From assembly GCA_947085285.1 (NCBI GenBank), contig CAMTVZ010000138.1, positions 330 to 64,329 on the forward strand: DNA of 64,000 nucleotides, read 5' to 3'. The position numbers were made by a program, and so were the translations under genes. The stretch is from an uncultured Ignavibacteriota bacterium. Lineage in GTDB: Bacteria; Bacteroidota; Ignavibacteria; UBA10030; BY39. Each line of letters opens with the position of its first letter. Position 1 is the first letter of the stretch. Positions 1 through 27,790 of the stretch are shown here, piece by piece. A model generated the notes under the pieces. It did no database searches, was not told the DNA's origin, and was given only the letters and a program-made list of their open reading frames with translations.

Positions 1-630
1 TTGTTCGATGAGCCGCTAAGCAATCTCGATGCAAACCTGCGTGTTCAAATGCGAACCGAAATTTCGCGACTGCATCACCAAATTGAAACCACGATGATTT
101 ACGTAACGCACGACCAAGTGGAAGCAATGTCGATGGGCGACAGGATTGTTGTAATGAAAGACGGCTATATACATCAGGTTGATACACCACTAAACATATA
201 CAATAATCCCGTAAATAAATTTGTTGCTTCGTTTATCGGAAGTCCGACGATGAATTTTGTTGAAGGCACAATTCAAATTGATGATCAATTGAAGTTCACC
301 TCCCCCAGTAAAACTTTTACGTGTAATTTACCCGATGAATACAGAAACAAATTAGCTCCATATAAAAGTGAGAAAATTATATTAGGAATCCGACCTGAGC
401 ACATACACACTCAAATGAATTCGTCAACGTTGCAGGAGATAAAGGGGTTTATCGAAGTTATAGAAACGGTAGGTAACGAGATGTTTGTTTATTTCGCAAC
501 TGGAGAGAGGGAAAAGTTAGTGGCTCGTGTGCCCCCCGATAACCGGTTAAAAGTAAACGAAAACTTTCCGCTTTATATCGACACAACTAAATTACATTTT
601 TTTGATAAGGTAACAGAAAAAGCTGTATAA
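1..630 (+). CDS. Sugar ABC transporter ATP-binding protein (MalK/UgpC family), C-terminal part. The 5' end is truncated by the window edge.
   Basis: Walker B/D-loop [11 protein letters not shown] and H-loop YVTHDQ are present. The C-terminal TOBE-like regulatory domain follows. The frame is open at position 1. Confidence 0.75.
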
Positions 631-639
631 CAAGAACGA

Positions 640-1845
640 TCAAACTTCTGAAATTTTACGACAGATGTAAATATTATTTATTATTGGGTCGAAATGATGA
701 TGTGTTAGAATTTTTTCAATAGTCGAAAGAGTAACAATAAAACCAGCTTGTAAAAGTTTAATGCCGCTACCAGTACATAGATCGTTTGCTAATACCATAC
801 CCTCCCTGAGTTCATAGACGCTAATTTGTTGTTTATTATCCAGCCAAAAAGGATCGTTTGTAATGTGTAAATATTCTTCAAGCAATTGCATTACTCGCGG
901 GTCGAGTATCGTGCCTCGTGCTTTACGGACAGTTTCTATCAAATGATCGAGTTTGAAATCTGGTTTTGAGGTTTCTTGCTCAACAAGATTTACTGCTCTT
1001 AAAATTCTTGCCTCAATTGGAATATGCTGAGCTTGGAGCCTGTCGGGGTAACCTGTTCCGTCATAATTTTCTAACTGATGACGGATAACCAGACCCACAT
1101 TTTTTAATCTGCTAATCTTACCTATCAATAATTGCCCTAAAACCGGGAACTGGAACAACTTAGTTTTTTCGTCTTCCGACAAATCATAAAAATTCTTTTT
1201 TAGTATTTCATCGGAGAGTGTAATTTTTCCGATTTCTCGAAGTTGAATAGCCAATTCGATCGTCTTTTTTGTTTGAGCATCTAAACTTAATCTTTCAGTC
1301 ATCCAGCCAACCAATTCTTGTGCTTTCGAAGCTCTGACAGAAGCATTAGGGACGCGAAGTCCGATTAGCTGATTTAATAAATTTACCAATGCCAGCAATC
1401 CATCGTCTAATTCTTTGTTCAGTTGTTCTAATATTTTTTTATCATTTTTTAAAGTTTCTTGGAGTGATTTTATTCTTAAAAGTGCTTTTATTTTGGAATG
1501 AAGTTCTTCGGGGTTGAAAGGTTTCGTGATGAAATCATCGGCACCGACTTCTAAGCCTTTTATTTTAGTTTCGACTTCGGAAGCAACTGAAAGGATTACA
1601 AACATAGTATCGTACAGAAGGGGGTGTGATTTAATTTTTTTGCAAAAAGAGAAGCCATCTTCGTATGGCATGTAGTAATCTGAGAGGATAATGTCGGGTT
1701 GATTCTCCTCGGAAATTTTGAACGCTTGGATTGTATCGGTAGCTGTAAAAATTTTATAATGCGAGTTAACCTCCAATGCTCTTGAAATTTCATTTAAAAA
1801 CAGAGGTTCATCATCAATTATTAGTATTTTGAATTTTTTTTCCAT
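640..1845 (-). CDS. Response regulator with a receiver domain and a degenerate HD-GYP domain (GYP motif kept, HD dyad replaced).
   Basis: The N-terminus reads KILIIDDEP...ILSDYYMPYEDG, a REC domain. The C-terminus reads RHQLENYDGTGYPDRL, so the GYP motif is present. The expected LHDIGKI segment reads LREIGKI, so the HD dyad is absent. It sits 4 nt downstream of motB. Confidence 0.7.
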   Translation of the reverse strand: MEKKFKILIIDDEPLFLNEISRALEVNSHYKIFTATDTIQAFKISEENQPDIILSDYYMPYEDGFSFCKKIKSHPLLYDTMFVILSVASEVETKIKGLEVGADDFITKPFNPEELHSKIKALLRIKSLQETLKNDKKILEQLNKELDDGLLALVNLLNQLIGLRVPNASVRASKAQELVGWMTERLSLDAQTKKTIELAIQLREIGKITLSDEILKKNFYDLSEDEKTKLFQFPVLGQLLIGKISRLKNVGLVIRHQLENYDGTGYPDRLQAQHIPIEARILRAVNLVEQETSKPDFKLDHLIETVRKARGTILDPRVMQLLEEYLHITNDPFWLDNKQQISVYELREGMVLANDLCTGSGIKLLQAGFIVTLSTIEKILTHHHFDPIINNIYICRKISEV

Positions 1846-1849
1846 AAAC

Positions 1850-2617
1850 TTATCTCACATCAAATTTAATAATTATACTTATTCTGCGGTTGGATACATC
1901 GTTTGGGTTTTCAGCGTTACGAAGTTTTCTGTCGGCATAACCGCGTACTTCATCTATTTGAGAATCCTTAATTCCATTAGCAACCAAAACCCGACGAGCG
2001 CTATTCGATCGATCGGCGCTCAACTCAAAATTCGAATATCCGTCGCTTCTTTGATAAGGTCTACTGTCGGTATGTCCTTCAATAATAATGTGATTTGGTA
2101 GCTTGCCTACTTCTTTTGCGATGGCAGATAATATTTTTATAGCTTCAGGTTTTAGCTGAGCGTTTCCAATATCAAAAAAGAAGGATTCCGAGCCTTCGAG
2201 GAGTTCGATTCTCATTCCTTCTTTTACAATCTCTATTTTAATTTGCTCTAATAATTTTTTTAGGTTTGGTTCTTTAGTAAGTTCTCTCATAATAGCATTT
2301 GCCATCTCTTCTAATTTTTTTTCTTCACGTTTCAACATTTCGTCCTGAATTCTTTCTTTCACTATAGGAGAATCGCCCGAAAAAGTTCCAGTCCCTTTTG
2401 TGTTTTCAAAGAAAGCACCTGGGTCTTTAAAGTAGTTGGCTACATATTCTTTTATCTGCTTGCTTTGACCGACTATCCATAGCACAATAAACAAAGCCAT
2501 CATAGCTGTTACAAAATCGGCATAAGCCACTTTCCAGGCTCCGCCGTGATGAGCGGCGTGGTGCTTTTTATTTTTTCGTACAATTCGTACTGGTAAATCA
2601 TTATTCAAAGATTTCAT
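1850..2617 (-). CDS. motB: Flagellar stator protein MotB.
   Basis: A single transmembrane segment follows KVAYADFVTAMMALFIVLW. The C-terminus is OmpA-like (IIEGHTDSRPY). It follows motA directly. Confidence 0.85.
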   Translation of the reverse strand: MKSLNNDLPVRIVRKNKKHHAAHHGGAWKVAYADFVTAMMALFIVLWIVGQSKQIKEYVANYFKDPGAFFENTKGTGTFSGDSPIVKERIQDEMLKREEKKLEEMANAIMRELTKEPNLKKLLEQIKIEIVKEGMRIELLEGSESFFFDIGNAQLKPEAIKILSAIAKEVGKLPNHIIIEGHTDSRPYQRSDGYSNFELSADRSNSARRVLVANGIKDSQIDEVRGYADRKLRNAENPNDVSNRRISIIIKFDVR

Positions 2618-2629
2618 TTTAGATAATTC

Positions 2630-3505
2630 CTATTGTGTTGCTTTCTGTGTTGCTTTCAAAGATTTTACAGCTTCTTCTAATTCACTAAACGACGGACGCA
2701 CGTCATCAAAAATCACTCTACGGGCGAATTCAACTACGATAATTGGTGCGTTCCCTTTTGTATAAGCCACTACACCAGCTTTAATGCTTTCTAAATATCT
2801 ATGTTCTATTTGATTTAACAGTTCAAGATGAGTTGCAATCGGTTGAACAAATCCATACGATAAAAGGACCCCTAAGAAAGTACCTACAAGAGCGGCTGCA
2901 ACTTTTTGGCCGATTATTTCGGGCGGTCCGTCGATTGCCTGCATTGTAATAACAATTCCTAACACTGCCGCAACTATACCCAAGCCTGGCAGTGCATCTC
3001 CGATTTTTTGAATGATATTCGGTGCCGCTGAGCTTTCCTGGTGTTTAGTTTCGAGATCTGCCTCAAGTAATGCCTCTAGGTCGTGAGGAGGAACTCCGCC
3101 GCCGAGGAGTAATTTCATAGAATCACAAAAAAAGCTGATTGCATGATGTTGTTTTAACAGGAATGGATTTTTCGAAAAAATGGAGCTCTTCTCGGGCGAT
3201 TCAATATGCTGTTCAATATTAATAAGTCCATCGCGAGTGGCAAGGTTAAACAATTCGAACATACTCTTTAGCAAATTTAAATACTCCTGCTTAGTATATG
3301 GGTTGCCTTTAAAGATAAACCCAATACTCTTTGAAATTTTTTTTAAAATATGTAGAGGAGTTGATACTAATAGCGAGCCAATAGCAGCACCACCAATTAT
3401 CATAAATTCGCTCCACTGTAATAATACAAGTAATGGTCCTCCGTGCAGCAAATAGCCGCCCAGCACACCAATTATTACAACTGCTAAACCGATTATTACC
3501 AACAT
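2630..3505 (-). CDS. motA: Flagellar stator protein MotA.
   Basis: The membrane topology and C-terminal region match the MotA/TolQ/ExbB family. It is adjacent to motB. Confidence 0.85.
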   Translation of the reverse strand: MLVIIGLAVVIIGVLGGYLLHGGPLLVLLQWSEFMIIGGAAIGSLLVSTPLHILKKISKSIGFIFKGNPYTKQEYLNLLKSMFELFNLATRDGLINIEQHIESPEKSSIFSKNPFLLKQHHAISFFCDSMKLLLGGGVPPHDLEALLEADLETKHQESSAAPNIIQKIGDALPGLGIVAAVLGIVITMQAIDGPPEIIGQKVAAALVGTFLGVLLSYGFVQPIATHLELLNQIEHRYLESIKAGVVAYTKGNAPIIVVEFARRVIFDDVRPSFSELEEAVKSLKATQKATQ

Positions 3506-3514
3506 ATATCTACC

Positions 3515-3766
3515 TCATCTTTTAACATTTTTATTTGAATTTTCTTTGAGCATCCGGGCTGCTTGTATTACTGTACTCTTCAGAGTTTTCGCGGCTTCGG
3601 TATTATATCTCTCTATTTGGTCATATACTTCCGATCGAAATATTTTCACGTCATCGGGAGCTTCGAATCCTAACTTTACCTGTCCATCGGATATTTCTAA
3701 AATTTTGAGCTTAATATTTTTACTTATCACAATCGATTCGCTTATTTTTCTTGTCAATATTAACAT
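3515..3766 (-). CDS. csrA: Carbon storage regulator CsrA.
   Basis: MLILTRKISESIVIS...VKLGFEAPDDVKIFRSEVY is the canonical CsrA sequence. It lies immediately downstream of fliW. Confidence 0.9.
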   Translation of the reverse strand: MLILTRKISESIVISKNIKLKILEISDGQVKLGFEAPDDVKIFRSEVYDQIERYNTEAAKTLKSTVIQAARMLKENSNKNVKR

Positions 3767-3777
3767 AATATCCTCAT

Positions 3778-4182
3778 CTATTCAGGAATGGTTTCAAGTT
3801 TCAGCGAAAAATCATATCGTAGCTTTTCGTCCTCAAGAATTATTTGAACCCCCACCTGAGTATCGTTATCTATAATAATCGGGCTTCTCAAATTTAATGT
3901 CGAATCCTCAAATGGTTCGCGGAGTGTTGCAACAACAAACACACTTTTTTTACCTGGCATTTTGGGTATATAGTAATCAGGAATTATTAGGTTTGGTTCG
4001 ATTAGAGGAAGACTAAAATTCGAATCCTCAATTGAAACAAGCCAACGGAAGGGTTGAGAATCTTCGTCGTCAACAACTATAAATTTTTTTAAGTTTTCAA
4101 AACCGATAATCCCTTCAGGAAAATCTACTATGTGTTTTTCTTCGAACTCAAATTCGCCAAAATGATGGTTAAAATATTTCAT
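3778..4182 (-). CDS. fliW: Flagellar assembly factor FliW.
   Basis: The N-terminus IVDFPEGIIGFENLKKFIV and the RWLVSIED segment match the FliW family. It pairs with csrA as in Bacillus. Confidence 0.85.
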   Translation of the reverse strand: MKYFNHHFGEFEFEEKHIVDFPEGIIGFENLKKFIVVDDEDSQPFRWLVSIEDSNFSLPLIEPNLIIPDYYIPKMPGKKSVFVVATLREPFEDSTLNLRSPIIIDNDTQVGVQIILEDEKLRYDFSLKLETIPE

Positions 4183-4904
4183 TATAATTTCTCCTTTAAA
4201 TTATTTTCTTGAATTAAGTTTGTAACTATTACGATATCAACTCTTCTGTTACGGGCTCGATTTTCGGGTGTAGTATTAGGAACTATAGGATGATACTCGG
4301 AATAACCTGTAACAGAAATTTTTTCGGCTGTTAGCTTGTGTTTAGTAATAAGATAATATGCAGCTACTACCGCACGTTCAACCGATAAGTGCCAGTTCGA
4401 TGGAAATCGAGGTGTATTTATTGGAACATTGTCGGTATGCCCTTCGATTCTTATTTCGTTAGGCAAAGTCTGCAAAATTTTTGCCAGTGAATCGAGAACA
4501 GTTAACGAGTTGTTTTTTAATTCTGCCTTTCCGGTTTCGAATAATAATTCTTCCATCAAATGGACTGTAACACCTCGTTCGTTGTCGGTAACCGAAACTA
4601 ATCCTGAATTCACACTTGGTGCTAATGCATTTTTTATTTCGTCCTGGATTAATTTTTTTTCAATTTGGATTTCCGACAAGATAGGTTCGCGAACATCGAA
4701 TTTGCTTGACGGTAATATTTTTTCGGAGCTGCCGAAAATGCCCCCAAGGGCTGTAACAATTTTCGAATATCTATCACTATCTATCTTCGACATTGCATAC
4801 AATATCACAAATAAACCCAGTAATAATGTTATTAGGTCGGCATAGGTTAGAAGCCAGCGTTCGGTATTGTGAGTTTCATCTTTATTTATTTTTCTCTTAA
4901 TCAC
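4182..4904 (-). CDS. Second stator B subunit (MotB/MotS/PomB-like).
   Basis: The transmembrane segment reads RWLLTYADLITLLLGLFVIL. The OmpA C-terminus reads RIEGHTDNVPI. It is translationally coupled to the upstream MotA paralog. Confidence 0.75.
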   Translation of the reverse strand: MIKRKINKDETHNTERWLLTYADLITLLLGLFVILYAMSKIDSDRYSKIVTALGGIFGSSEKILPSSKFDVREPILSEIQIEKKLIQDEIKNALAPSVNSGLVSVTDNERGVTVHLMEELLFETGKAELKNNSLTVLDSLAKILQTLPNEIRIEGHTDNVPINTPRFPSNWHLSVERAVVAAYYLITKHKLTAEKISVTGYSEYHPIVPNTTPENRARNRRVDIVIVTNLIQENNLKEKL

Positions 4905-5680
4905 AGATTATGCCCCTTTTGACTTGAAGGGATCATACTTTCGAGTTTGGAACGAATAACTGAAGGCGACTCCCCCTGTTGGATAGCTATTACACTAACA
5001 ATATACATTTCTAACATTAATTGTTCTTCTGAATGAATTTGTTTCAACTTGTCGGCAATTGGCAACCAAACCAAATTTGCCATCAACACACCCCAAAGAG
5101 TTGCAACAAAAGCTGTTGCTATGTGTCGAATCAGTTCGTTCGGATCTTCGCCAGCAGCTGCTAATGTAGCAATCAAACCCATAACCGTACCAATAATTCC
5201 CATAGTTGGCGAATATCCCCCCATCCGTTGAAACAAACCAGAACCCTGGGCATGCCTTTCGGACAGGTAGTGGACCTCCATTTCAGCAATAGAGCGTAGA
5301 TCATCGGACTCGGTTCCGTCGATTGCTAATTGTAACATTTTTTTTAAGAATGGACTTTTTATATTTTCTATCTCTTTTTCGAGAACAAGTAAGCCTTCGC
5401 GGCGAGCAATAATTGCATAACTTACTAGTTCATCAATGGTTTGCTGAGTATCAAACCTCAGCGGGCGTATTACAAGAAGAATCAACTTGCCGAACATTAT
5501 AAATTTTTGAAAAGATGTGCCTATCAAAGCTGCGGCAAATGTGCCGCCGAATACTATGATCATTGCGGGCAAAAGAATTAATGCCCCAGTGCTACCACCT
5601 TCCAACATAAAGGATCCGAATATTGAACCGAATCCCAACAACAATCCACCTATTGTCCCTATGTCGTATGTTTTTTTCAT
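4901..5680 (-). CDS. Second stator A subunit (MotA/MotP/PomA-like).
   Basis: The four-TM MotA architecture is present. The conserved C-terminal region reads GIIGTVMGLI...ATLWGVLMANL. Confidence 0.75.
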   Translation of the reverse strand: MKKTYDIGTIGGLLLGFGSIFGSFMLEGGSTGALILLPAMIIVFGGTFAAALIGTSFQKFIMFGKLILLVIRPLRFDTQQTIDELVSYAIIARREGLLVLEKEIENIKSPFLKKMLQLAIDGTESDDLRSIAEMEVHYLSERHAQGSGLFQRMGGYSPTMGIIGTVMGLIATLAAAGEDPNELIRHIATAFVATLWGVLMANLVWLPIADKLKQIHSEEQLMLEMYIVSVIAIQQGESPSVIRSKLESMIPSSQKGHNL

Positions 5681-5681
5681 G

Positions 5682-6572
5682 TTATCTCAAATAGTCTAAT
5701 AATGTTTTGGGAATGATTCGCGCACCAACATTCATTGCTGCTTCAAGTGTCATTTCTTCCTGTTTCAATTTCACGATCGATTCGGCAATATCAGCATCCT
5801 GAAAATCAGAGAGTAATTTCAACAGGTTTACTTTGTTACTTTCAATTTGCTTTTCAAAATTATCGATTGTTTGATTTATTGAACCTAACTTACCCCCGAT
5901 ATCTGTTACATATTTGAAATGCTCTGAAATTGCTTGTATTTCCAGAGCTGTAGGGAGTTGACCGTTAAGCATGTTGTCTCTAATTTGAATCAGGTCGGTG
6001 AATATTTGATTTCCTCGGAAGGCTTCTTGACCGTTGATGTTTACAGTTTGAGATACACCTTCGCCAAAAGCAAATTTAATAGCACCCGATATACCGCTCG
6101 GGTTTACAGAAACGCTCGAACGATCAGCCGCCAAAACAAAAGGTGGTTGCAGGTTTTGTGTACCCCCGAAAATATATTTACCATTAAACTGTGTGTTGGC
6201 AATATGTACCGATTCGTCTAAAAGTTGATCGATTTTTTTGGCATAAATACTTAGTTCGTTCGACTGGGTACCATTCTTGGCGCGAACTAAAAGTTCTTTT
6301 ACTTCAGAAAGGATATTGGTAAAGTTATCGATTGCCAAACTTGTTGCATCGACGAAACTTTTCCCCTCTGAAATATTTTTCATATACTGTTCGGTCCTAT
6401 CGAGGGCACTCTGGAACAAAATTATTTTGTTTGCTGCTTCGGGATCGTCGGAAGGTTTGTTTACCCGTTTCGAGGTAGCAATTTGGGTTTGTAGCATTAC
6501 CAAACGATCGCGGCTACGATTTATGTTAGATAAAAAGTTTGATATAAATTTGTTTTCAGTTATACGCATCAT
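5682..6572 (-). CDS. flgL: Flagellar hook-associated protein 3, FlgL.
   Basis: The N-terminus MRITENKF...TQIATSKRVNKPSDDPEAA is a flagellin-like N domain. It follows flgK. Confidence 0.8.
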   Translation of the reverse strand: MMRITENKFISNFLSNINRSRDRLVMLQTQIATSKRVNKPSDDPEAANKIILFQSALDRTEQYMKNISEGKSFVDATSLAIDNFTNILSEVKELLVRAKNGTQSNELSIYAKKIDQLLDESVHIANTQFNGKYIFGGTQNLQPPFVLAADRSSVSVNPSGISGAIKFAFGEGVSQTVNINGQEAFRGNQIFTDLIQIRDNMLNGQLPTALEIQAISEHFKYVTDIGGKLGSINQTIDNFEKQIESNKVNLLKLLSDFQDADIAESIVKLKQEEMTLEAAMNVGARIIPKTLLDYLR

Positions 6573-7939
6573 TACACCATATTTAATATTGTTTGATATA
6601 ATTCATTAACACTGTTTACAACTTTTGCTGCTGCGTCGAATGACCTTTGATATTTAATCATATTAGTCATTTCTTCGTCGATTGAAACACCCGATACCGC
6701 CTGCCTCTGGTTTTCCAATTGACTAATGACTAAATCGCTCATCTTTAAATTATTCCCTACAATGTTTATCTGTGAACCCAATCCGCTAACAAGTGAAGCA
6801 TAAAATTGTTTTAACGAAGTTGTACCGCCGTTTAGAATTTTTTCGTTTTCAATTCCGGCTATCGCCAAAGCTATTGCGTTATCACCAGGTGCACCGTCGG
6901 ATGAAGCCGTTATGTTGTTTAGATTATTAAGAATACTGGCTGCAATATCTATATCTGACGAACCGGTCCCGGTAAAGAAATTATTTCCTGTTGATGGAGG
7001 ATTGCCCAATCCATACCCGGAAGAGTGGATTGAATTAACTCTGTTAATTAAATTTGATGCAATCTGGTCGAGTTTGGTCAGAAAATCAGGGACGGTGGTA
7101 TTACGAACTTTTAAAATTCCGCTCAACTCCCCCGAATTAATGTTAACAGAGTTCCCCGTTAAACTGGAAACGATATTCAAACTGTTACCGACACGCTCTG
7201 TGCGAAGTTCAACTGCACCTGCTCGCGAGGCAATTACAACTCCACCAACCGAAACCATAGTTGACCCACGTCCATCCTCAGTAACTTTAATATTTACAAG
7301 CTTGGAGAGCTCCTCAATTTTCAAATCTCTTTGGTCTTTAGCATCGTTTGGCGAAATGTTATCTACCAGTTTGCTTGTAATTTGCAGATCGAGTTGACTG
7401 ATTTCTTTTGTGAGCTGATTAATCCGGCCGAGTTTATGTTCTATTTCGATGTCAGTATCGCTTATCAATTTTTTTAAGCCTTGATCTAATCTTTTGAACG
7501 ACCCTGTTAAATTTACACCTTGTTGAAGCACAATGTTCCTTATGCCAGTGCTGTCGGGATTTTTCGCAAGTTCGTTGAAACTACCAAAGAACTTACTCAT
7601 AGCTGAACTTAAACCAACATCTGTTGGTTCGTTTATAAGAGCTTCGATTTGCGAAAGATACTGCTGCTGTGCTACTAAATCGCCATTAAGCTGGTTATTA
7701 GTTCTGACCTGCTGGTCAATAAATTGATTACGGAGTCTGCCGATATAATCGACGGTAACACCTGTCCCGATTAGGCCGGCTTTTCGTTTTAGGGGCTGCG
7801 ATGCTACTAAATCGGCTCGTTGGCGAGTGTAGCCTGGTGTGTTTACATTAGCAATGTTGTGGCTTGTTACACTCATCGCAAGCCGCTGAGTTATTAACGC
7901 TCGACGAGCGCTCTCGAGTATGTCGGTTAATCCAGCCAT
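6572..7939 (-). CDS. flgK: Flagellar hook-associated protein 1, FlgK.
   Basis: The N-terminus reads LAMSVTSHNIANVNTPGYTRQRADL. Length is 455 aa. A conserved C-terminal helix is present. Confidence 0.85.
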   Translation of the reverse strand: MAGLTDILESARRALITQRLAMSVTSHNIANVNTPGYTRQRADLVASQPLKRKAGLIGTGVTVDYIGRLRNQFIDQQVRTNNQLNGDLVAQQQYLSQIEALINEPTDVGLSSAMSKFFGSFNELAKNPDSTGIRNIVLQQGVNLTGSFKRLDQGLKKLISDTDIEIEHKLGRINQLTKEISQLDLQITSKLVDNISPNDAKDQRDLKIEELSKLVNIKVTEDGRGSTMVSVGGVVIASRAGAVELRTERVGNSLNIVSSLTGNSVNINSGELSGILKVRNTTVPDFLTKLDQIASNLINRVNSIHSSGYGLGNPPSTGNNFFTGTGSSDIDIAASILNNLNNITASSDGAPGDNAIALAIAGIENEKILNGGTTSLKQFYASLVSGLGSQINIVGNNLKMSDLVISQLENQRQAVSGVSIDEEMTNMIKYQRSFDAAAKVVNSVNELYQTILNMV

Positions 7940-7948
7940 ATTTTTTTC

Positions 7949-8404
7949 CTAAACTCTACAATCAATAAGTTGTTTGGTGTGATTTTCAGTTATTAACTTA
8001 ACATTTTCGCGTACAAAGTTTAAAGCGTTCTCGATCAATAATTTATTTTCCTGATTAACAGCTTGTAGATTTTTAATTATATTAGAAAGCCGATTACCCA
8101 CTTTCATAAGCCTTTCGGCATCGTTCGGATGCAACTGGTTTGTGATATGCGATAGATGAATATCCGATTTGGTTTCAGAATTTGCATCGTTACCTGCAAT
8201 TTCTAAACAAAGCATTAAACGTGCAGCTTCAAGGTTCTCTAATGGCAACATCAGGTCATAGAATTGATTAATTAAATTGCTTAAGGCGGTAATATCATTA
8301 TAAATAATCGCAAGTTGTTGCATTCGTAAGTTGGGAGCAATTAATTCTGCAAGTTCGGCTTCCATCGTCATTACAGTTTCAAGTTCTTCAATCTTTTTTT
8401 TCAT
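7949..8404 (-). CDS. Putative flagellar export chaperone (FlgN-like).
   Basis: A 151 aa helical protein immediately upstream of flgK-flgL. This matches the position of flgN/yvyG in Bacillus. Confidence 0.45.
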   Translation of the reverse strand: MKKKIEELETVMTMEAELAELIAPNLRMQQLAIIYNDITALSNLINQFYDLMLPLENLEAARLMLCLEIAGNDANSETKSDIHLSHITNQLHPNDAERLMKVGNRLSNIIKNLQAVNQENKLLIENALNFVRENVKLITENHTKQLIDCRV

Positions 8405-9203
8405 TTATATTCTCCTGTTCTTTGAAATAATTGATAAAATTCATCACTTTTTCTATATAAAGTTTAGTTTCTTTATATGGGGGAACGCCCGAGTGTTTTT
8501 CAACCGCGCCCGGTCCGGCGTTGTAAGCAGCTAAAGCTAACTCAACATCGTTTTGGAATTCTTTTAGCATCTTTGCCAAATATTTGGTGCCTCCGTTTAT
8601 ATTTTCGACTGGATTCCAGACATCCTTGACCCCCATATCCGAAGCTGTGGAATCGATCATCTGCATCAGCCCCTTTGCATTTTTCGGCGACTTTGCATTT
8701 ACTTTACCCGCCGATTCGGTTGCAATAACTGCTTTTATTAATGTGCTATCAACATTGTGTTTAGCAGCTGCTTCGTTTATTAATTTTTCATAATTCTGAA
8801 TTCGATTTTTAATTGTATCGGCTGGAGTAATAAAGTTGGTCGGTTTATTAATTTCTGATTCCTTCGCATTTTCGTTTTTTACAACTCTATTTAAAGTTTC
8901 TGGTTTGGGCAATACCTCGCCAGTAAGTTGCCGATACAGCATCTCGCCGATACCGAAGCTGTTATTTTGTGAAATATGTTTAGCAAGTTCACTATCAAAT
9001 ACACTTTCTAATATATCGCCGCCGTAATTTTCGCCAAAGCCATCTGAATCTACCTGACTGGAACGCATACTCTTTAATAAATATCCAACCATAATCGCCT
9101 CAAAATCTTTTACAACTTTTTGCAATTTTAATTTTGATTGCTCGTCCAATTTATTTTGAGCCGACGACTGTGTATGATTAATATGTGTTGTTAGTATGTT
9201 CAC
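8388..9203 (-). CDS. flgJ: FlgJ-like protein with a rod-binding domain fused to an SLT lytic transglycosylase domain.
   Basis: The N-terminus reads FEAIMVGYLLKSMRSS...NSFGIGEMLYRQL, a rod-binding domain. The C-terminus reads ESAGKVNAKSPKNAKGLMQM...AAYNAGPGAV, an SLT motif. Confidence 0.7.
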   Translation of the reverse strand: MNILTTHINHTQSSAQNKLDEQSKLKLQKVVKDFEAIMVGYLLKSMRSSQVDSDGFGENYGGDILESVFDSELAKHISQNNSFGIGEMLYRQLTGEVLPKPETLNRVVKNENAKESEINKPTNFITPADTIKNRIQNYEKLINEAAAKHNVDSTLIKAVIATESAGKVNAKSPKNAKGLMQMIDSTASDMGVKDVWNPVENINGGTKYLAKMLKEFQNDVELALAAYNAGPGAVEKHSGVPPYKETKLYIEKVMNFINYFKEQENINEKKD

Positions 9204-9214
9204 TTTATTAAAGT

Positions 9215-10327
9215 TTAAATAATTATTAATTCAGCTTTAAGAGCACCGGCTTCTTTAAGTGCCTGGAATATGGCAATAATATCGCGCGGTGTAACTTTAA
9301 GTGCATTCAGAGTTTTTGCAACATCCTGAACTGTGGCAGCACCATCGAAAGCCAAAATTCGTGATGTATCGGCTTGTGCCGATAGTGTAGTTATCTGAGT
9401 TACTACAGTTTCGCCCTGTGAGAATGGTTGAGGTTGAGAAATTACCGGAACTGATTGTATCTCGATATTCAACTGACCGTGTGTAATTGCAACAGGTAAT
9501 ATCGTAACCCGTTCACCAATCACAACGGTGCCGGTTCGTTCGTTCAATACCACTTTTGCAGTAACATCAGGGGTAACTTCGAGTAATTCTATCGACGAAA
9601 TAAACTCAACAATTTTTCCATCTTCACGTTTGTCTGGCGGAATCGTTATAGTTACGTTCGAAGCATCACGTGCAATAGCTAAATTAGATGAAAATTGTTT
9701 GTTGACAGCTTCGGCAATCCTCATTGCAGAAGTAAAATCGGCTTGCGTCAAGACGATTGTAATGGAGGTATCTTTTGAGACATTGTTTACAAACGAACGT
9801 TCCATTATAGCTCCCCCGGGAATACGTCCTGCCGCTGTATGATTGCGGCGAATTTCGTTTCCACTTTGCCTTACACTAGTACCTCCAGTTGATACCGAAC
9901 CTTGAGCTATAGCATAAACTAAACCATCGGTACCAGAAAGTGGCGTCATTAGCAAAGTCCCCCCCTGTAAACTTGTTGCATCGCCGATCGACGATACCAC
10001 AACATCTATTAAGCCTCCTTCTTTTGCAAAATTTGGTACCGAGGCGGTAACCATAACAGCAGCAGCATTACGCAACCGTAAATCGTCGTGCGAAACAGTT
10101 ATACCGAACCGTTTTAACATCGATGAGATCGATTGAACTGTAAATGTCGACCTGTGAGTATCGCCTGTTCCGTTCAAGCCTACAACGACTCCGTAACCGA
10201 TTAATTGCTGATTCCTGACACCGTGAATGTAAGCCATATCTTTCAGACGCACTGCTGAAGTGGTTGAACTTATAAACACAATGTTCAATAGAAGGAATAC
10301 TAAAATGTTATTTGTCAGTTTGTTCAT
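9215..10327 (-). CDS. flgI: Flagellar P-ring protein FlgI. I moved the start to the Met that opens the signal peptide (MNKLTNNILVFLLLNIVFISS). The ORF track extends it to 10465.
   Basis: The C-terminus reads IAIFQALKEAGALKAELIII. The signal peptide begins at the ATG at 10327. The longer ORF would overlap flgH by 122 nt. Confidence 0.85.
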   Translation of the reverse strand: MNKLTNNILVFLLLNIVFISSTTSAVRLKDMAYIHGVRNQQLIGYGVVVGLNGTGDTHRSTFTVQSISSMLKRFGITVSHDDLRLRNAAAVMVTASVPNFAKEGGLIDVVVSSIGDATSLQGGTLLMTPLSGTDGLVYAIAQGSVSTGGTSVRQSGNEIRRNHTAAGRIPGGAIMERSFVNNVSKDTSITIVLTQADFTSAMRIAEAVNKQFSSNLAIARDASNVTITIPPDKREDGKIVEFISSIELLEVTPDVTAKVVLNERTGTVVIGERVTILPVAITHGQLNIEIQSVPVISQPQPFSQGETVVTQITTLSAQADTSRILAFDGAATVQDVAKTLNALKVTPRDIIAIFQALKEAGALKAELIII

Positions 10328-10343
10328 ATTATCTCCATTCATA

Positions 10344-10901
10344 TTAAAACAGAAAGTGAAAAAGTTTTGTAATCCAACCTGGACCTTGCGAACGTGATAC
10401 AAGCCCGCTTCCTTCGATAACAATTGAAGCATCAGCGATGTTGTAAGAATAGATACTATTATCAACCTGAATATCTGCTGGACGCACTATGCCAGAAATT
10501 TGTATTTTTTGTTCTTCGCCATTAATAGAAGATGTTTTAGCTCCTTTAATTATTAGATTGCCGTTTGGCATAACAGAATCGACGCGGGCACTCATTTTTG
10601 CACGGATGAAACCGCGGCTCAATGTTCCACCTTCTCCTTTAAACTGGTTTCCTGTGCCGATGCTTTGTTCTGGAATCGGGATATAAACGTTACCGCCAAC
10701 AGATATATCGCTCGACCTGCTTGCTGAAGTTCGAGCATCGTTCGAGGCTGTAGTAGCCTCGACAATCAAAATTGTTACCAAATCGCCTACACGCGATGCT
10801 TTCTGGTCGGCAACTAACGATCGGTTAACACTCTCGCGAAAATCTTGCGCACTCACGACCGATGCAAATAGAGTTATCATTATAATAATTTTATTTTTCA
10901 T
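10344..10901 (-). CDS. flgH: Flagellar L-ring lipoprotein FlgH.
   Basis: A signal peptide is present. LVADQKASRVGDLVTILIVE matches FlgH. It lies between flgA and flgI. Confidence 0.85.
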   Translation of the reverse strand: MKNKIIIMITLFASVVSAQDFRESVNRSLVADQKASRVGDLVTILIVEATTASNDARTSASRSSDISVGGNVYIPIPEQSIGTGNQFKGEGGTLSRGFIRAKMSARVDSVMPNGNLIIKGAKTSSINGEEQKIQISGIVRPADIQVDNSIYSYNIADASIVIEGSGLVSRSQGPGWITKLFHFLF

Positions 10902-12430: not shown

Positions 12431-13174
12431 TTATAATTTTCCAACTTCAATTGCTTTTTGTAAAGTCTCGTCCTGTGTTTGAATTGCTTTTTGATTCGAT
12501 TCGAAACTTCGGGTCATCTCAATCATCGCTACCATTTCGGCAATTCCATCCACATTCGAGGCTTCGAGATAACCTTGCCTTACAACACTCAGATTCTCAA
12601 GCGGCTCGATTGTATGTGGGATAAGATTCGAGTTAAAAAGGGATTTCCCTTCTTTCGATAATTTTGATAAGTCTGCGAAATCAACGATACGAAGTTTGGC
12701 TACAGTTTTATCGTCCAAGATTATCTCCCCCGATTCGTCGATCAATAATTTTGCTCGTTTGAGATTTTCTTTTTCTGGCAATTGAATTTTTCCTTCTTTG
12801 CCTATTACAGGATATCCTTCAGCAGTAACAAGCAAGCCAGTCGAAGTTAAATCGAAATGCCCATCGCGTGTGTATCTCAACCCGTTTGGAGTTTCAACTA
12901 CAAAAAAACCTCTCCCTTGGATCGCTACATCTAACTGATTATTAGTGTTATTTAAGCTCCCTTCACTAAAATCGACATACTGCCGGGTAACCATACCTGA
13001 GGTATCGGGTTGTCCATTCAGTTGTTCGACTCCGGTTTCCTTAAGTATTTCTGTAAAAGCCGCATCTCGTTTATAACCGGTTGAATTAATATTGGCAAGG
13101 TTATTAGCAACAATTTCCATATTCACCATTTTCGAACGCATCCCCGCACTCGAATTATAGATACTTTTTATCAT
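12431..13174 (-). CDS. flgF: Proximal rod protein FlgF.
   Basis: Rod N and C domains are present (SSAGMRSKMVNMEIVANNLANINSTGYK; MIEMTRSFESNQK). Confidence 0.8.
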   Translation of the reverse strand: MIKSIYNSSAGMRSKMVNMEIVANNLANINSTGYKRDAAFTEILKETGVEQLNGQPDTSGMVTRQYVDFSEGSLNNTNNQLDVAIQGRGFFVVETPNGLRYTRDGHFDLTSTGLLVTAEGYPVIGKEGKIQLPEKENLKRAKLLIDESGEIILDDKTVAKLRIVDFADLSKLSKEGKSLFNSNLIPHTIEPLENLSVVRQGYLEASNVDGIAEMVAMIEMTRSFESNQKAIQTQDETLQKAIEVGKL

Positions 13175-13812
13175 ATTCTTTCCTTTACTAATTTTTTGTT
13201 CCCATATTCATTAAGTTTTAGAGCTAAAATTATTTCACCATTACCGATGCCAAATTTTTTTGCTGCGTTGATTATTTGTTGCTTGCTTTTACCTTTGACC
13301 GAAATAATAATGTTGTTATAATAATTTTTTTTCGGTTGTGCTGATTGAATTTTTTGAATTATGGATAATTCACCATAACCGCGGCCCATCTGTTGAGCAA
13401 AGCGGACACCTTCATCTACAGATTCTACATCAATGGCGTTCGTGGCTACGATTGGTTCTGATGGAGGTGTTTCGACTTTTTGTTTAGTTATTGACTGAGC
13501 TTTAGTTTTCTTTTTGAAATATTTCATAACGCCGAGTAGCATAATTCCATTCAAACCCAAGACTATTAAGATTGAAATGGTAAGTAAAACGATAAAGTTG
13601 TTTGGGTTTTCGATTATATTTTGATTAGATGATTTGTCAGAAACTTTTACTGTAGAATAAGGGACAGAATATTTTTCGGCAAAAATATATTTTTTAACTG
13701 CATCCGAACCGCAGGTAGATGCAGCAAAACAAATATTGCTGATTATAAACAGAATCGTAATTACAAGCAATGGTGAAGAAAATATTTTTATGTAATTTGT
13801 TTTATTAACCAT
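13171..13812 (-). CDS. Hypothetical membrane protein with a signal/TM segment, a second TM segment, and two C-terminal helix-extension-helix-like repeats.
   Basis: The repeats are VDEGVRFAQQMGRGYGELSIIQKIQ and QIINAAKKFGIGNGEIILALKL. It is translationally coupled between the GAF kinase and flgF. I do not recognise a family. Confidence 0.4.
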   Translation of the reverse strand: MVNKTNYIKIFSSPLLVITILFIISNICFAASTCGSDAVKKYIFAEKYSVPYSTVKVSDKSSNQNIIENPNNFIVLLTISILIVLGLNGIMLLGVMKYFKKKTKAQSITKQKVETPPSEPIVATNAIDVESVDEGVRFAQQMGRGYGELSIIQKIQSAQPKKNYYNNIIISVKGKSKQQIINAAKKFGIGNGEIILALKLNEYGNKKLVKERI

Positions 13813-15181
13813 TGTTTTTCCTTGTTGGTAGAGTAATTATAAAAGTAGTTCCTTTATCAATTTCGCTATATACTTGAATGTTTCCTTTGTGTTGATTGAT
13901 AATTCTTCTTGATATAGACAAGCCTAATCCGGTACCTTGATCTTTTGTTTTTGTAGTAAAAAATGGTAAAAATACTTTTTCCAAATTCTCCACAGAAATC
14001 CCTTTACCATTATCAGAAAATTTTATTACGACAAAATTGTTAACTAATTCAGAAGAAATACAAATCAAGCCCCCCTGAGGCATTGCGTCGCGGGCATTAA
14101 TCAACAGGTTCATGAACACTAGCTGAAGGTAAGTCGACTTACCAAAAATTGCCGGAATGTTTTGAGCCAAATTTAATTCAATCTTGATATTTAAGTAGGT
14201 AAAATCTTTTCTTACTGTATCTACTGCATTGCAAATAACATCATTTATTTTGACTATTTCAAAATCATTACCATACGAATCATCGCGGCAAAAATCTAAC
14301 AAGCGTTTCGAAATTAAAACGAGTTGTTCAATTTTTTGAGAGAATAAATCGATCCAATTTTCAGGTAGCAAGCCCCGTTTAGCCAAATCGAGTTGGAACA
14401 TCAAGTATTGAACGGGGGTTCGCATTTCGTGCATGATGCTGGCGGCTAACTCGCCCACGGCGGCAAGCTTCGATACTTGAATCATTCTTTCCTGCGACGA
14501 TTTAATTTCCTCGTTTGCCGAAATTAATTCTTGGTAAGTTCTCCAATTTTCGATTCCTACGGCAGCAAAATTTGTGAGCACCGATAAAAGTTGTATATCG
14601 AAATGTGAGAAACCTTGTTGTGGTTTTTCGGTATGAATTACATAAATACCGATTGGTTCGTTACGAATAATCAATGGAACAATAACAAAATTCCTTGTAG
14701 TATTTATATTGGTCAGATGATTTAAATCTGGAATAATTACAGTCTTTTTCTCAGATAAAACCCAATCCACAATTCCCGATTCGAGCTGCAGGTTTGCTTG
14801 TTTTTCTAAACCATTCATTTCTCTTTTTAAAAATGGTTCTAATTTATTCGTTTTTCGAGTGAATAAAAAAATATTTGAATCGACAACTGGAATAACCTGC
14901 TTAGTGAGTTCAATTAATGTATCGATTAACTTTCCAGGTTCAACCGAAGTGCTGATAACGTTCGAGAGACGTTGTAGAGCAATTATTTCTTCAAACGATT
15001 GCTTCAACTCGATGTTGCTTTCAGTGCGGCGATTAATTTCGAGTTTTAAAACCTCTATAGTTTTTTCAAGTCCTTTTATGTAAGTTTCTCGACTCTCAAC
15101 AAACTGTTCGAAATTTTCAAGCACTTCGTTCGTTAAAGCATTCGGTGTTATATTTTGAAATATTTGTGTTGGATTGTTCAT
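13805..15181 (-). CDS. Cytoplasmic sensor histidine kinase with a GAF domain, HisKA and HATPase_c.
   Basis: The H-box reads ELAASIMHEMRTP. The G-boxes read DNGKGIS and GTGLGLSISRRI. There is no N-terminal TM segment. Confidence 0.8.
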   Translation of the reverse strand: MNNPTQIFQNITPNALTNEVLENFEQFVESRETYIKGLEKTIEVLKLEINRRTESNIELKQSFEEIIALQRLSNVISTSVEPGKLIDTLIELTKQVIPVVDSNIFLFTRKTNKLEPFLKREMNGLEKQANLQLESGIVDWVLSEKKTVIIPDLNHLTNINTTRNFVIVPLIIRNEPIGIYVIHTEKPQQGFSHFDIQLLSVLTNFAAVGIENWRTYQELISANEEIKSSQERMIQVSKLAAVGELAASIMHEMRTPVQYLMFQLDLAKRGLLPENWIDLFSQKIEQLVLISKRLLDFCRDDSYGNDFEIVKINDVICNAVDTVRKDFTYLNIKIELNLAQNIPAIFGKSTYLQLVFMNLLINARDAMPQGGLICISSELVNNFVVIKFSDNGKGISVENLEKVFLPFFTTKTKDQGTGLGLSISRRIINQHKGNIQVYSEIDKGTTFIITLPTRKNNG

Positions 15182-16062
15182 TGAACACTCTCTTGAACTT
15201 GCACTGTATTGTTCTTTAAATTTTCTAAGTCGGTCTTAAAAATGTTTGTATATTTTTGAATAAACAAGTCTTGCTGTTCTTGAGTCTGCAAACCAAGAAC
15301 CTGAAGAGCCTCTCTATTAAAGTCGAGTTTTCCATCAAAGATAATCCCATCACATCCAACCTCTGATGCAAAAACGTCAGCAACATGTAGTAGCACAGTC
15401 ATTTCCTGATTTCGCTCCATCTTTGTTGGGTTATGATGATTTTTAATAGCATCAACTAAAGAATCGGGGAGGTTCCACCTTTCGGCAAGCCAACCTCCAA
15501 CTTGGGCATGCGATACGCCCAAAATTTTTTCTTCGGCTTCTAAGTAAGATACATTATATTTTTTTGCCAGCTTGATTATAGCTCTGAATTCATCTGGAAA
15601 ATATTTATGCAGCACCGAGATCCCCATATCGTGCAGCAGCCCTGCAACAAATAACTCCCCCGATACTCGATAGCCCACATCGCGGGCTAAACGGCGTGCA
15701 ATAACCGCGCTCGAAATCGAATGGTCCCAATAATTTTTTGCATCAAAATACTCGTCCGATTCCTGTTGTAGTGCATTCACCATAGCCACACTCATCACAA
15801 TTTCGCGTAAAGTTTCGAACCCAAGTATTATAATTGCAAATTCGATAGTAGAAATTTTTTTTGGAAAACCATAAAAGGGAGAATTACTTATCTTCAGCAC
15901 CTTTGCTGTTAATGATTGATCGGTAGATATAACTGCGCCAAGCTGAGCGGCACTCGTCTTGGGATTGTCCAAAAGTTGGGCTATCTCCAATGCAACAGAG
16001 GACAATGCGGGCAAATGAATAATTTTTTTAACTCTCTCACGTATTTGTAAAGGGCTTAGCAT
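15178..16062 (-). CDS. HDOD domain protein.
   Basis: LPALSSVALEIAQLLDNP...VISTDQSLTAKVLKISNSPFYGF is an HDOD signature. It lies directly downstream of fliA. Confidence 0.8.
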   Translation of the reverse strand: MLSPLQIRERVKKIIHLPALSSVALEIAQLLDNPKTSAAQLGAVISTDQSLTAKVLKISNSPFYGFPKKISTIEFAIIILGFETLREIVMSVAMVNALQQESDEYFDAKNYWDHSISSAVIARRLARDVGYRVSGELFVAGLLHDMGISVLHKYFPDEFRAIIKLAKKYNVSYLEAEEKILGVSHAQVGGWLAERWNLPDSLVDAIKNHHNPTKMERNQEMTVLLHVADVFASEVGCDGIIFDGKLDFNREALQVLGLQTQEQQDLFIQKYTNIFKTDLENLKNNTVQVQESVQ

Positions 16063-16064
16063 TT

Positions 16065-16784
16065 TTAATTACTCTCCATAGTTTTTCGTAGTTCTGATAT
16101 AATTCTTGAATGGATTTGAGCTACACGCCCTTCCGATATTTTCATAATTTTTCCGATCTCTGAATATGTCAATTCTTCATAATAGTATAGCGTAATAACA
16201 TCACGGTCGCGTTGCGGAAGTTGAGCTATTGCATCGATTAAACGATCTTTCTCTTCTTCAATGCGTAGCTTTTCGTATGGATCTGTTTCAATCTCGTCCG
16301 AGACAATATTCACACCTTCCTCTTCATCATCATGTAGTTTGATTTTTTCCATATTAACTAATCTCAATGTTGAGTTCTGAAAATTTTCATCAATTTCTTC
16401 TGAATATTCTCCACAATTGAACTTCTGTTCATTTCTTTCGATAGCTAGTTGTGCTTCGCGTTCTTTTTTTCTGACTGACCGTGGAACCCAGTCTAATTTC
16501 CTAAGTTCGTCTCGTATAGTTCCCCGTATTCTGATAATGGCATAAGTTTCGAACTTCACCCCTTTCGAAGCATCAAACTTTTCGAAAGCATCCAGTAAAC
16601 CAATCATTCCAAATTGGATTAAATCATTTTCTTCTAATATCGAAGTACCAGTTGTGATAGGTAAATTATATTTCCACACAGCATAGTTTACAAGCTTGCT
16701 GTATTCTTTAACTAATTCATCTCTCACTTCAATTGATTTTGTTTCTGAATACAATTCGATTATTTTGTAGTTATCCTTTTCCAT
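16065..16784 (-). CDS. fliA: Flagellar sigma factor FliA (sigma-28).
   Basis: The region 2 motif reads LIQFGMIGLLDAFEKFD. The region 4 HTH reads LTYSEIGKIMKISEGRVAQIHSRII. Confidence 0.85.
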   Translation of the reverse strand: MEKDNYKIIELYSETKSIEVRDELVKEYSKLVNYAVWKYNLPITTGTSILEENDLIQFGMIGLLDAFEKFDASKGVKFETYAIIRIRGTIRDELRKLDWVPRSVRKKEREAQLAIERNEQKFNCGEYSEEIDENFQNSTLRLVNMEKIKLHDDEEEGVNIVSDEIETDPYEKLRIEEEKDRLIDAIAQLPQRDRDVITLYYYEELTYSEIGKIMKISEGRVAQIHSRIISELRKTMESN

Positions 16785-26560: not shown

Positions 26561-27787
26561 TTATGGAATGGAATATTTTACACGTATAGGCTCTTTGATC
26601 GAGTCGCTCTTTTGCCATTGAAGAATCATTTTAATAAAAGTCTCGGTTAATATCGAGTATGAGCGAATTAGACACAGCCCATTTCTTGTTACGATATCCT
26701 GCATTAAAATCATTCCTGCCTGTAGCTCTTCAACGGTAACGTATTTTTCAACTTCATTCTTTTGTTGTTGGCTTTGCTCTGTTCCGAAAAATAAGTTCAA
26801 TAATTCTGGGTCATAAATATCGTTAGTGCTTACTAATTTTTTGTATAAATCACTCCCCTTATTATTCAAAGATATAAGTTTATCCATATCAATTAAGATA
26901 CGAAGCAACCGTGAGCCAAGAGGTAATTCGTTTCGACATACTTTTTCGAGTACCGGTTCCCCCTTTCCACTGTAATCTTTTTTACTAAAACGAATAATTC
27001 GTGCTACATTTTTAAATTTTGGTATGTTCTCAATCAGAGCCGCACCAAGAAGCTGGTGATTTTTTGCTTCAGCAAACCTTTCGATAGCCGATAGTCCCTC
27101 TTTGTTAAGTATAACTTGTATCCATGCTGGCAAAACAGCCACGCCAATATTGAATAAATCGAAAGCACTTTCAATCTCCCAACGTTCTAATTCACTTAAG
27201 GGGGGCAATTTTTTCAAAAAAACATTCCCTAATTGTCGTACTCGCATTGTTTGAGCATTTGCCTCGGGATTGATATAGACAATTAAGTCGCTCAGCAAGC
27301 GAACAGTACCACCAACTGTTCCACTGAGAAGCTCGTTAAGTTGAGAGTTTTTCGACTTAAGTACATTCAGTAAATATTTGTTTTCTTGTAATAGATTGTA
27401 TTTTTCAAGAGAATCTCTGAGTAGTTTTTTTAGGTCGTTATCATTCCATGGTTTATTTATATAATGACTGATTTTACCGATATTGATTGCCCGCAGTGTG
27501 TCGTCGAAATCGGCATACCCTGTAATCATTATTCGGATTGTTTCAGGGGAATATTCTGACACGGTTTGTAGTACTTTAACTCCATCTACTACCGGCATTC
27601 TCTGGTCTGAAAATACTACTGCGAAAGGGCCATGTAGATTGAGATAATCCTCTATTCTCTCAGATTTATCAAGAAGATGAATGTCGCAGTTTTCGTTGCG
27701 CATAAGGGAGCGAAAAGCCGAAAGAAGATTAGGTTCGTCATCAACATATAGAATTTTTCGATTTTGAGTATAAGTATCAGTTAGCAT
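26561..27787 (-). CDS. Response regulator with a receiver domain and a highly degenerate HD-GYP-like C-terminal domain.
   Basis: The REC domain reads ILYVDDEPN...FSDQRMPVVDG. The C-terminus reads DYSGKGEP where DGSGYP would be expected. No HD dyad is present. Confidence 0.6.
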   Translation of the reverse strand: MLTDTYTQNRKILYVDDEPNLLSAFRSLMRNENCDIHLLDKSERIEDYLNLHGPFAVVFSDQRMPVVDGVKVLQTVSEYSPETIRIMITGYADFDDTLRAINIGKISHYINKPWNDNDLKKLLRDSLEKYNLLQENKYLLNVLKSKNSQLNELLSGTVGGTVRLLSDLIVYINPEANAQTMRVRQLGNVFLKKLPPLSELERWEIESAFDLFNIGVAVLPAWIQVILNKEGLSAIERFAEAKNHQLLGAALIENIPKFKNVARIIRFSKKDYSGKGEPVLEKVCRNELPLGSRLLRILIDMDKLISLNNKGSDLYKKLVSTNDIYDPELLNLFFGTEQSQQQKNEVEKYVTVEELQAGMILMQDIVTRNGLCLIRSYSILTETFIKMILQWQKSDSIKEPIRVKYSIP

Positions 27788-27790
27788 AAA

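Follow-up and report, generated by a model that had tools for sequence, protein, structure and literature searches.

The window analyzed here is a stretch of 64,000 nucleotides (nt) from an uncultured Ignavibacteriota bacterium (GenBank assembly GCA_947085285.1, contig CAMTVZ010000138.1, positions 330 to 64,329 of the forward strand). It contains a flagellar supercluster of about 49 kb (window positions 1 to 49500), whose final gene in the window (640..1845, reverse strand; identified in the open reading frame [ORF] listing) encodes a 401-amino-acid protein that comprises a receiver (REC), a stalk, a degenerate HD-GYP domain, and a C-terminal barrel domain of 80 amino acids. This protein, hereafter the regulator, and its relationship to the flagellar stator genes next to it are the subject of this study. 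The original prediction placed a REC plus HD-GYP protein 4 nt 3' of motB, and the ORF coordinates and Pfam matches bear this out. The ATG start codon of the regulator lies at 1843 to 1845 and the TAA stop codon of motB at 1850 to 1852, so that exactly 4 nt separate the two genes.

Gene order and operon structure

The regulator follows an Escherichia coli-type stator pair on the reverse strand, consisting of motB (1850..2617; Pfam MotB_plug and OmpA; PRK09041 MotB, 229 bits) and motA (2630..3505; NCBIfam TIGR03818 MotA1, 350 bits versus a cutoff of 304). Farther upstream on this strand, the Pfam-assigned genes csrA (3515-3766) and fliW (3778-4182), which together cover 3515..4182, lie between this pair and a second, MotCD/MotPS/PomAB-like stator pair (4182..5680; motA' at 4901-5680 and motB' at 4182-4904). 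The latter was assigned with Pfam and NCBIfam, and its scores of 228 bits (NF006583) and 211 bits (MotD, NF006541) are both slightly under the cutoffs of these models. Beyond the second stator pair, flgL and then flgK are found on the same strand. One operon thus holds two stator sets split by fliW-csrA (window positions 2630-5680), and this layout is kept across the Ignavibacteria-type loci described below.

The gaps among these operon genes are 1 to 12 nt, or the genes overlap, and therefore there is no space for separate promoters. In a consensus promoter and terminator scan of window positions 1-8500, the counts were at the level of shuffled sequence. The gene spacing shows that the regulator is translated from a tightly packed transcription unit shared with motA-motB. 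Its immediate neighbors are motB on one side and a convergent gene for an ABC ATPase on the other.

Domain architecture of the regulator

Pfam assigned residues 7-120 of the regulator to Response_reg (E value of 9.8e-27) and residues 156-317 to HD_5 (E value of 1.4e-24), a model that spans the HD-GYP core. The receiver (residues 5-120; 1486..1833, reverse strand; Pfam) has a complete phospho-acceptor set (D11, D12, D56, S86, F105, and K108), i.e., the acidic pocket, the acceptor Asp, the Thr/Ser, and the Lys of two-component receivers. The stalk (residues 121-165; 1351..1485, reverse strand) lies, according to the AlphaFold2 secondary structure, within a continuous helix (residues 112-164) that links REC to the HD-GYP fold; analogous, dimerizing stalk helices have been described in PmGH (PMC4159591) and DvhD (PMC13090378). 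The degenerate HD-GYP domain (residues 166-320; 886..1350, reverse strand) was delimited by alignments to the solved structures 5z7c and 4mcw and by column counts, and it is followed by a small C-terminal beta-barrel plus helix domain (CTD; residues 335-398; 652..843, reverse strand).

An AlphaFold2 model built from the 120-sequence alignment described below (mean predicted local distance difference test score, 91.2) consists of the receiver, the helix 112-164 and the helical HD-GYP core that it runs into, the GYP loop, and a C-terminal unit that combines four short strands with a helix. The best HD-GYP match of the model in Foldseek was DvhD bound to cyclic di-GMP (c-di-GMP) (9rbz_B; E value of 4.7e-8; target template modeling score of 0.75). 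Pfam, the AlphaFold2 model, and Foldseek all indicate the REC plus HD-GYP fold of RpfG-family enzymes.

Complete loss of the metal site

We aligned the regulator residue by residue with two solved HD-GYP enzymes, V-cGAP3 (5z7c) and PmGH (4mcw), and used the eight metal ligands of PmGH (E185, H189, H221, D222, H250, H276, H277, and D305; PMC4159591) as a reference. In both alignments, R203-E204 of the regulator align with the His-Asp of the HD motif. None of the eight ligands is retained: E185 corresponds to N167, H189 to R171, H221 to R203, D222 to E204, H250 to F233, H276/H277 to Q257/L258, and D305 to N286. The original prediction had noted LREIGKI in place of LHDIGKI and proposed an enzymatically dead domain. 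The motif (residues 202-208; 1222..1242, reverse strand) reads as stated, with the catalytic-position lysine K207 retained, and the degeneracy is wider than had been claimed, since all eight ligands are lost. The former HHExxDGxGYP loop now reads RHQLENYDGTGYPD (1042..1083, reverse strand), in which HHE has become QLE. The GYP motif, described in the original prediction as intact (YDGTGYPDRL), is indeed present (G265-Y266-P267), and the backbone residues D262, G263, G265, P267, and D268 of the loop are conserved. The window protein thus shares the GYP motif of active RpfG-family enzymes and lacks their metal-ligand octet.

An alternative His-Asp pair that might complete the metal site was sought by alignment, and none was found. 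The only extra conserved His, H256, is offset by one position to the N-terminal side of the HHE register and lacks partners. Judged from its sequence, the regulator is a catalytically dead pseudoenzyme.

Conservation of the degenerate domain

Conservation was evaluated in the best 120 of more than 2,000 relatives from a database search, which are full length and 40 to 82% identical to the regulator; their source names are Ignavibacteria, Ignavibacteriales, and "Bacteroidota bacterium" metagenome-assembled genomes (MAGs). The nearest homologs (69 to 82% identity) likewise read LREIGK, and LREIGKI is therefore not a sequencing artifact. Many of the residues in and around the former metal site are strongly conserved. 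Position 171 is R in 106 of the 120 homologs, position 203 is H in 105, R in 9, and K in 5, and E204 is found in all 120, with G206 and K207 also invariant. Likewise, position 233 is F or Y in 114 homologs, H256 is present in 106, Q257 and E259 in 119 each, and N286 in 115. The GYP tyrosine position (position 266) is occupied by Y (57), F (26), H (11), or L (8). In the receiver, D56 and T/S86 occur in 120/120 homologs and K108 in 112/120. In mean pairwise identity across the alignment, the degenerate domain (45%) lies close to REC (43.5%), and the CTD (52%) is the most conserved region of the regulator (invariant G349, G361, L364, D386, and P387).

Because the replacement residues are conserved and the domain is as conserved as REC, these observations point to a selected pseudoenzyme rather than to decay, and they show that purifying selection acts on all parts of the regulator. 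Most likely, R171, R/H203, E204, K207, H256, Q257, and E259 are joined by salt bridges and hydrogen bonds into a network that stands in for the metal cluster. The same columns could also be read as a noncanonical hydrolytic site, formed for example by H256, E204, and E259, and by H203 in most relatives, given how frequent His is at 203 and 256 and how close to invariant the two glutamates are. We consider a surviving hydrolase highly improbable. The window protein has Arg at 203, and alanine substitutions at H189, H221, D222, H250, H276, or H277 of PmGH essentially abolish activity (PMC4159591). HnoD, an RpfG-family protein of Shewanella oneidensis with the same QLE change, failed to hydrolyze c-di-GMP, as far as the published account of it goes (bioRxiv 10.1101/2021.11.05.467447), and DvhD, with comparable losses, was inactive with every metal tried (PMC13090378).

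A sister clade and a wider CTD-bearing subfamily

A profile built from both the degenerate domain and the CTD was searched against 1.84 billion representative proteins and retrieved 839 proteins at an E value of <=1e-30, of which the best 151 were classified. A complete catalytic pattern was found in 47 of these (25 with the CTD), a signature of R/K171, E204, Q257, and E259 ("HQLE-type") in 31 (30 with the CTD), and other kinds of degeneracy in 73 (63 with the CTD). Because the CTD occurs in all three classes, it belongs as an accessory to a larger HD-GYP subfamily, which has apparent enzymes among its members. On these profile matches, the HQLE-type lineage is one branch of this CTD-bearing subfamily.

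A second search, seeded on an HQLE-type outgroup representative (P0265), yielded a sister clade in which 115 sequences were counted. Its named members are Syntrophorhabdus/Syntrophorhabdaceae MAGs of the phylum Thermodesulfobacteriota, and its proteins are 26 to 39% identical to the window protein. The clade retains R171, H203-E204, K207, H256-Q257-L258-E259, the glycines and proline of the GYP loop, and the CTD invariants. At the GYP tyrosine position, the six commonest residues (F 50, I 25, T 9, M 8, S 7, and L 4; 103 of the 115 sequences) do not include Tyr. The acceptor Asp of the receiver is present in only 63/115 sequences, and the acidic pair is often lost as well. The sister clade therefore resembles a pseudo-receiver on a pseudo-enzyme, with a conserved HD-GYP domain and barrel and with the receiver acceptor Asp lost in about 45% of its members. 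Conservation across both clades extends to the remodeled pocket, the backbone of the GYP loop, and the barrel at the C terminus; part of the sister clade can dispense with the receiver.

Phosphorylation and c-di-GMP as possible inputs

The original prediction left the input to the regulator as either c-di-GMP or phosphorylation. For phosphorylation, the prediction stands in part: the invariance of D56 and T/S86 makes such an input plausible in Ignavibacteria, but it is not universal, given the state of the acceptor Asp in the sister clade. The c-di-GMP alternative is disfavored by the residues that would have to bind the nucleotide. The GYP tyrosine, which binds phosphate in PmGH (PMC4159591) and DvhD (PMC13090378), is kept in fewer than half of the 120 homologs and is absent from the commonest residues of the sister clade. 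The loop that carries R314 and K317 in PmGH (R650, Y652, and R653 in DvhD) is four residues shorter in the regulator and unconserved, with no conserved Arg or aromatic residue; the substrate-binding Arg/Lys of active enzymes (R314 and K317; loop L10/11) thus have no counterpart, as positions 290-299 contain no conserved basic residue. We also compared the DvhD sites Y523, L577, K582, Y621, M646, R650, Y652, and E668. Only at L577 (L222; L, W, or F) and K582 (K227; R or K in 94/120 homologs) is the type of residue retained; Y266 varies, and R650, Y652, and E668 are unconserved, although the loop alignment is uncertain. The position of E668, which confers guanine specificity in DvhD, is A, G, or S in the homologs. 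Because the known contact residues are poorly kept, canonical c-di-GMP binding is unlikely.

DvhD of Desulfovibrio vulgaris (PDB 9RBZ/9RC0) nevertheless binds c-di-GMP in a metal-free form, despite having SQ for HD and MN for HH (PMC13090378). The regulator could be a receptor of the same kind, with a pocket that binds c-di-GMP or a related nucleotide and a liganded form that brakes or releases the stator. DvhD in its c-di-GMP-bound form is the top structural match among HD-GYP proteins, L222 and K227 are kept in kind, and the pocket is basic (R171, K207, and R/K203 in the subclade of the window protein) and built of near-invariant residues. These similarities are outweighed by the variable phosphate-binding tyrosine (F, I, T, M, S, or L in the sister clade), by the shortened loop, and by the small residues at the E668 position, and we regard a DvhD-like receptor as quite unlikely.

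Linkage of the regulator to motA-motB

The association with the stator genes proved far stronger than a single window could show. The order motA-motB-regulator was found in all 17 loci examined, which represent two phyla (15 Ignavibacteria-type loci and 2 sister-clade loci). In each of the 15 Ignavibacteria-type loci, motA-motB lie immediately 5' of the regulator, with a 4-nt gap or an overlapping stop and start, and the genes downstream differ. Six distinct proteins from regulator-seeded searches (42 to 100% identical) share the order flgK-flgL-motA'B'-fliW-csrA-motA-motB-regulator. A metagenome scan with the HD-GYP core returned 80 loci, of which 7 belong to the family and 5 were informative, the rest having matched the generic DGTGYPD pattern; in these five additional loci, which reach upstream DNA, an orthologous motB, and motA where present, lies directly 5' of the regulator. 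In a reverse test seeded on MotA, all four contigs retrieved (MotA 67 to 70% identical) carry motB and then a REC plus HD_5 gene whose product has 402 to 405 amino acids. The motA genes of linked loci are 57 to 73% identical to that of the window. In one of the four MotA-seeded loci (L173), fliW-csrA are absent between the stator pairs, yet motAB and the regulator are retained.

The two sister-clade loci (L175 and L176; 2/2) contain motA (57 to 60% identity), motB (50 to 51%), and the regulator with 4-nt overlaps. Both form an isolated three-gene unit amid unrelated genes, outside any flagellar cluster. As a control, the flanks of 154 other REC or HD-GYP loci contained no MotA or MotB homolog, although many of these contigs are short and the control is therefore weak; it includes 80 loci from a genome-contig scan with the full-length alignment, all of which were unrelated REC proteins without MotA/MotB. 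No GGDEF, EAL, active HD-GYP, or PilZ gene was found beside the regulator in the 17 loci.

A proposed role at the stator

From these results, the regulator probably serves the flagellar stator as an accessory or regulator that has not been described before. We tentatively propose that it is a catalytically dead HD-GYP pseudoenzyme that is functionally part of the MotAB stator encoded just 5' of it, a reading that we find attractive but would stop short of calling probable. Under the best reading of its mode of action, it is dedicated to the stator and acts by protein-protein contact, under the control of phosphorylation in Ignavibacteria. HnoD, a degenerate HD-GYP response regulator that works through protein-protein interaction, is a precedent (bioRxiv 10.1101/2021.11.05.467447). 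By analogy with PmGH and DvhD, it would dimerize via the stalk. A histidine kinase would phosphorylate D56 and thereby alter the stalk and how the two HD-GYP/CTD lobes are arranged; the flagellar cluster itself encodes two candidates, a GAF kinase (13805-15181) and a hybrid PAS kinase (28971-31760). The lobes would then touch the cytoplasmic face of the stator or the stator-rotor interface, and the regulator would in this way govern engagement or torque delivery by the E. coli-type stator as opposed to the second set. The brake or clutch envisaged in the original prediction is one of several possible modes of action, and the regulator may instead be a selector, a recruiter, or an assembly factor.

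Several points weigh against this proposal. Gene order is the sole link of the regulator to MotA, MotB, or FliG. The Ignavibacteria loci lie at the end of a flagellar operon, where gene order tends to be conserved anyway, so that independent support for the linkage comes from the two sister-clade loci only, and the taxon names are those of relatives of looked-up proteins, not of the contigs themselves. Because about 45% of the sister clade lacks the acceptor Asp, phosphorylation cannot be the universal input. In addition, the near-invariant polar residues at the bottom of the pocket could equally mean a small-molecule ligand.

A more far-reaching and doubtful extension is that motA-motB and an HQLE-type dead HD-GYP protein constitute an ancient three-gene stator cassette that can be transferred, in which the pseudoenzyme would be a dedicated cytoplasmic stator subunit or regulator and would provide a third, phosphorylation-driven route of motor control that chooses between two stator sets. 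If this is true, the regulator would be a "CheY for the stator," independent of CheY-FliM switching and of c-di-GMP/PilZ brakes. Few controls of the assembled motor are known, namely CheY at the switch, the PilZ brakes YcgR, MotI, and FlgZ, and the EpsE clutch, and the choice between two stator sets has been explained for only a few proteobacteria. A pseudoenzyme that travels with one stator type across phyla is thus a concrete candidate for a new class of stator regulators.

Other signaling genes and features of the window

The flagellar supercluster, annotated in full, contains no che, PilZ, GGDEF, or EAL genes; it holds four receiver proteins and three histidine kinases. One of the receiver proteins is a paralog of the regulator (26561..27787, reverse strand; 26% identity; 238 bits to the NosR model) with REC, a degenerate HD-GYP domain, and the same CTD. 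Its motifs (HD to FN, GK to GV, and GYP to GEP) are more degenerate than those of the regulator. The paralog gene is the one directly upstream of fliL, which is likewise associated with the stator, and is part of a three-gene signaling insert between flgE and fliL (26561-31760, reverse strand). The other two genes of the insert encode a REC-HDOD protein (27791-28984, reverse strand), next to the paralog and the hybrid kinase, and the hybrid kinase itself, which has a REC-PAS(x3-4)-HisKA-HATPase architecture (28971-31760, reverse strand).

Three further genes are found in the region between fliA (16065-16784) and flgF (13171-16784, reverse strand). They encode a stand-alone HDOD protein (15178-16062), the GAF histidine kinase that is a candidate partner of the orphan regulator (13805-15181), and a 213-amino-acid protein without a Pfam or NCBIfam match (13171-13812), all on the reverse strand. 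Upstream of flgB, a PAS histidine kinase and a sigma-54-dependent response regulator (43193-45645, reverse strand) resemble the FlrBC/FleSR-type flagellar transcription pair.

In the region 9215-10901 (reverse strand), flgI in its longest ORF (TTG start at 10465) shares about 120 nt with the flgH ORF, and its Pfam FlgI match does not begin until residue 73; the true flgI start is probably further downstream than this TTG. In one ortholog locus (L086, positions 3655-4326), one 223-amino-acid gene with both Pfam domains is called in place of separate fliW and csrA genes, which could be a fusion or an assembly frameshift. Outside the flagellar supercluster, a type VI secretion cluster (54450-63979, reverse strand) includes a TssC fragment, VgrG-like Phage_GPD/Phage_base_V, PAAR, TssG, and a peptidoglycan-binding protein, as well as several ORFs without a Pfam match. 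It adjoins a gene for an 837-amino-acid Ser/Thr kinase with three PEGA domains (51861-54374).

Comparison with known systems

The closest known relatives of the regulator are HnoD and NosR, both of which are degenerate HD-GYP regulators. In HnoD, HD is replaced by SE and HHE by QLE, and the protein, inactive on c-di-GMP, inhibits the EAL enzyme HnoB (bioRxiv 10.1101/2021.11.05.467447). Set beside this published motif description, the regulator has the same REC plus HD-GYP architecture, with E204 matching the Glu in the HD position and Q257-L258-E259 matching QLE, so that a similar loss of activity is predicted. NosR of Burkholderia pseudomallei (BPSS1648), whose degenerate domain has HG...GTP, is phosphorylated by NosK, and mutants in its pathway are altered in swimming and biofilm formation (PMC12570481). 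The NosR model NF053512 is the best profile match of the regulator (222.3 bits over residues 129-384), and the match includes the C-terminal barrel (E value of 7e-7 for the CTD alone).

This kinship raises the alternative that the regulator is an HnoD/NosR-like pseudo-phosphodiesterase, the phosphorylation-controlled binding of which inhibits or activates a bona fide c-di-GMP cyclase or phosphodiesterase with a gene elsewhere; the position of the regulator gene behind motAB would then reflect only coexpression with motility genes. The GYP loop, which is the binding site for GGDEF proteins in RpfG (PMC4159591), keeps its backbone residues, which speaks for this alternative. However, the regulator scores well below the curated NosR cutoff of 400 bits. 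Its context is that of a stator and not of a nitric oxide (NO)-sensing operon: neither nosP (FIST) nor nosK, nor any other adjacent kinase gene, was seen beside it, and the scanned window genes contained no FIST domain. HnoD has been described as part of an NO/H-NOX kinase network and targets HnoB, whereas the regulator consistently follows motAB, and no GGDEF, EAL, or active HD-GYP gene adjoins it in the 17 loci or occurs in the flagellar cluster of the window. The sister-clade gene, moreover, travels with motAB alone, which coexpression in a flagellar regulon cannot explain. We therefore consider the HnoD/NosR-like alternative unlikely, and we retain action on the MotAB stator as the preferred reading.

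DvhD is the closest solved HD-GYP structure and resembles the regulator in being a metal-free, nonhydrolyzing HD-GYP fold with a dimerizing stalk. It differs in being a dCache-transmembrane-PAS-HD-GYP membrane receptor that controls a periplasmic protease, and most of its c-di-GMP contacts are unconserved in the regulator. The original prediction likened the regulator to YcgR or MotI in role but not in sequence. YcgR, MotI (DgrA), and FlgZ, the last of which acts on one of two stator sets, carry a PilZ domain (RxxxR and D/NxSxxG); PilZ and PilZN domains were looked for in the regulator and none was found, and the likeness is therefore limited to the proposed role, namely the control, once assembly is complete, of the stator or of its interface with the rotor. 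The input to the regulator is also likely to differ, being phosphorylation rather than c-di-GMP.

PA2572 of Pseudomonas aeruginosa (YN-GYP) likewise combines REC with a degenerate HD-GYP domain and exerts regulatory, nonenzymatic effects on motility-related phenotypes, but it is paired with the orphan chemoreceptor-like sensor PA2573 and not with a stator, and its degenerate motif differs from that of the regulator. A motAB-linked HD-GYP regulator was not described in the literature searched or in a 2026 review of motility suppression, which is not proof of novelty. Degenerate HD-GYP response regulators are thus already established, whereas a stator cassette conserved across phyla appears to be undescribed. 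To the former, the regulator contributes a clear example of an HD-GYP fold that has lost its metal center completely and been put to a new use.

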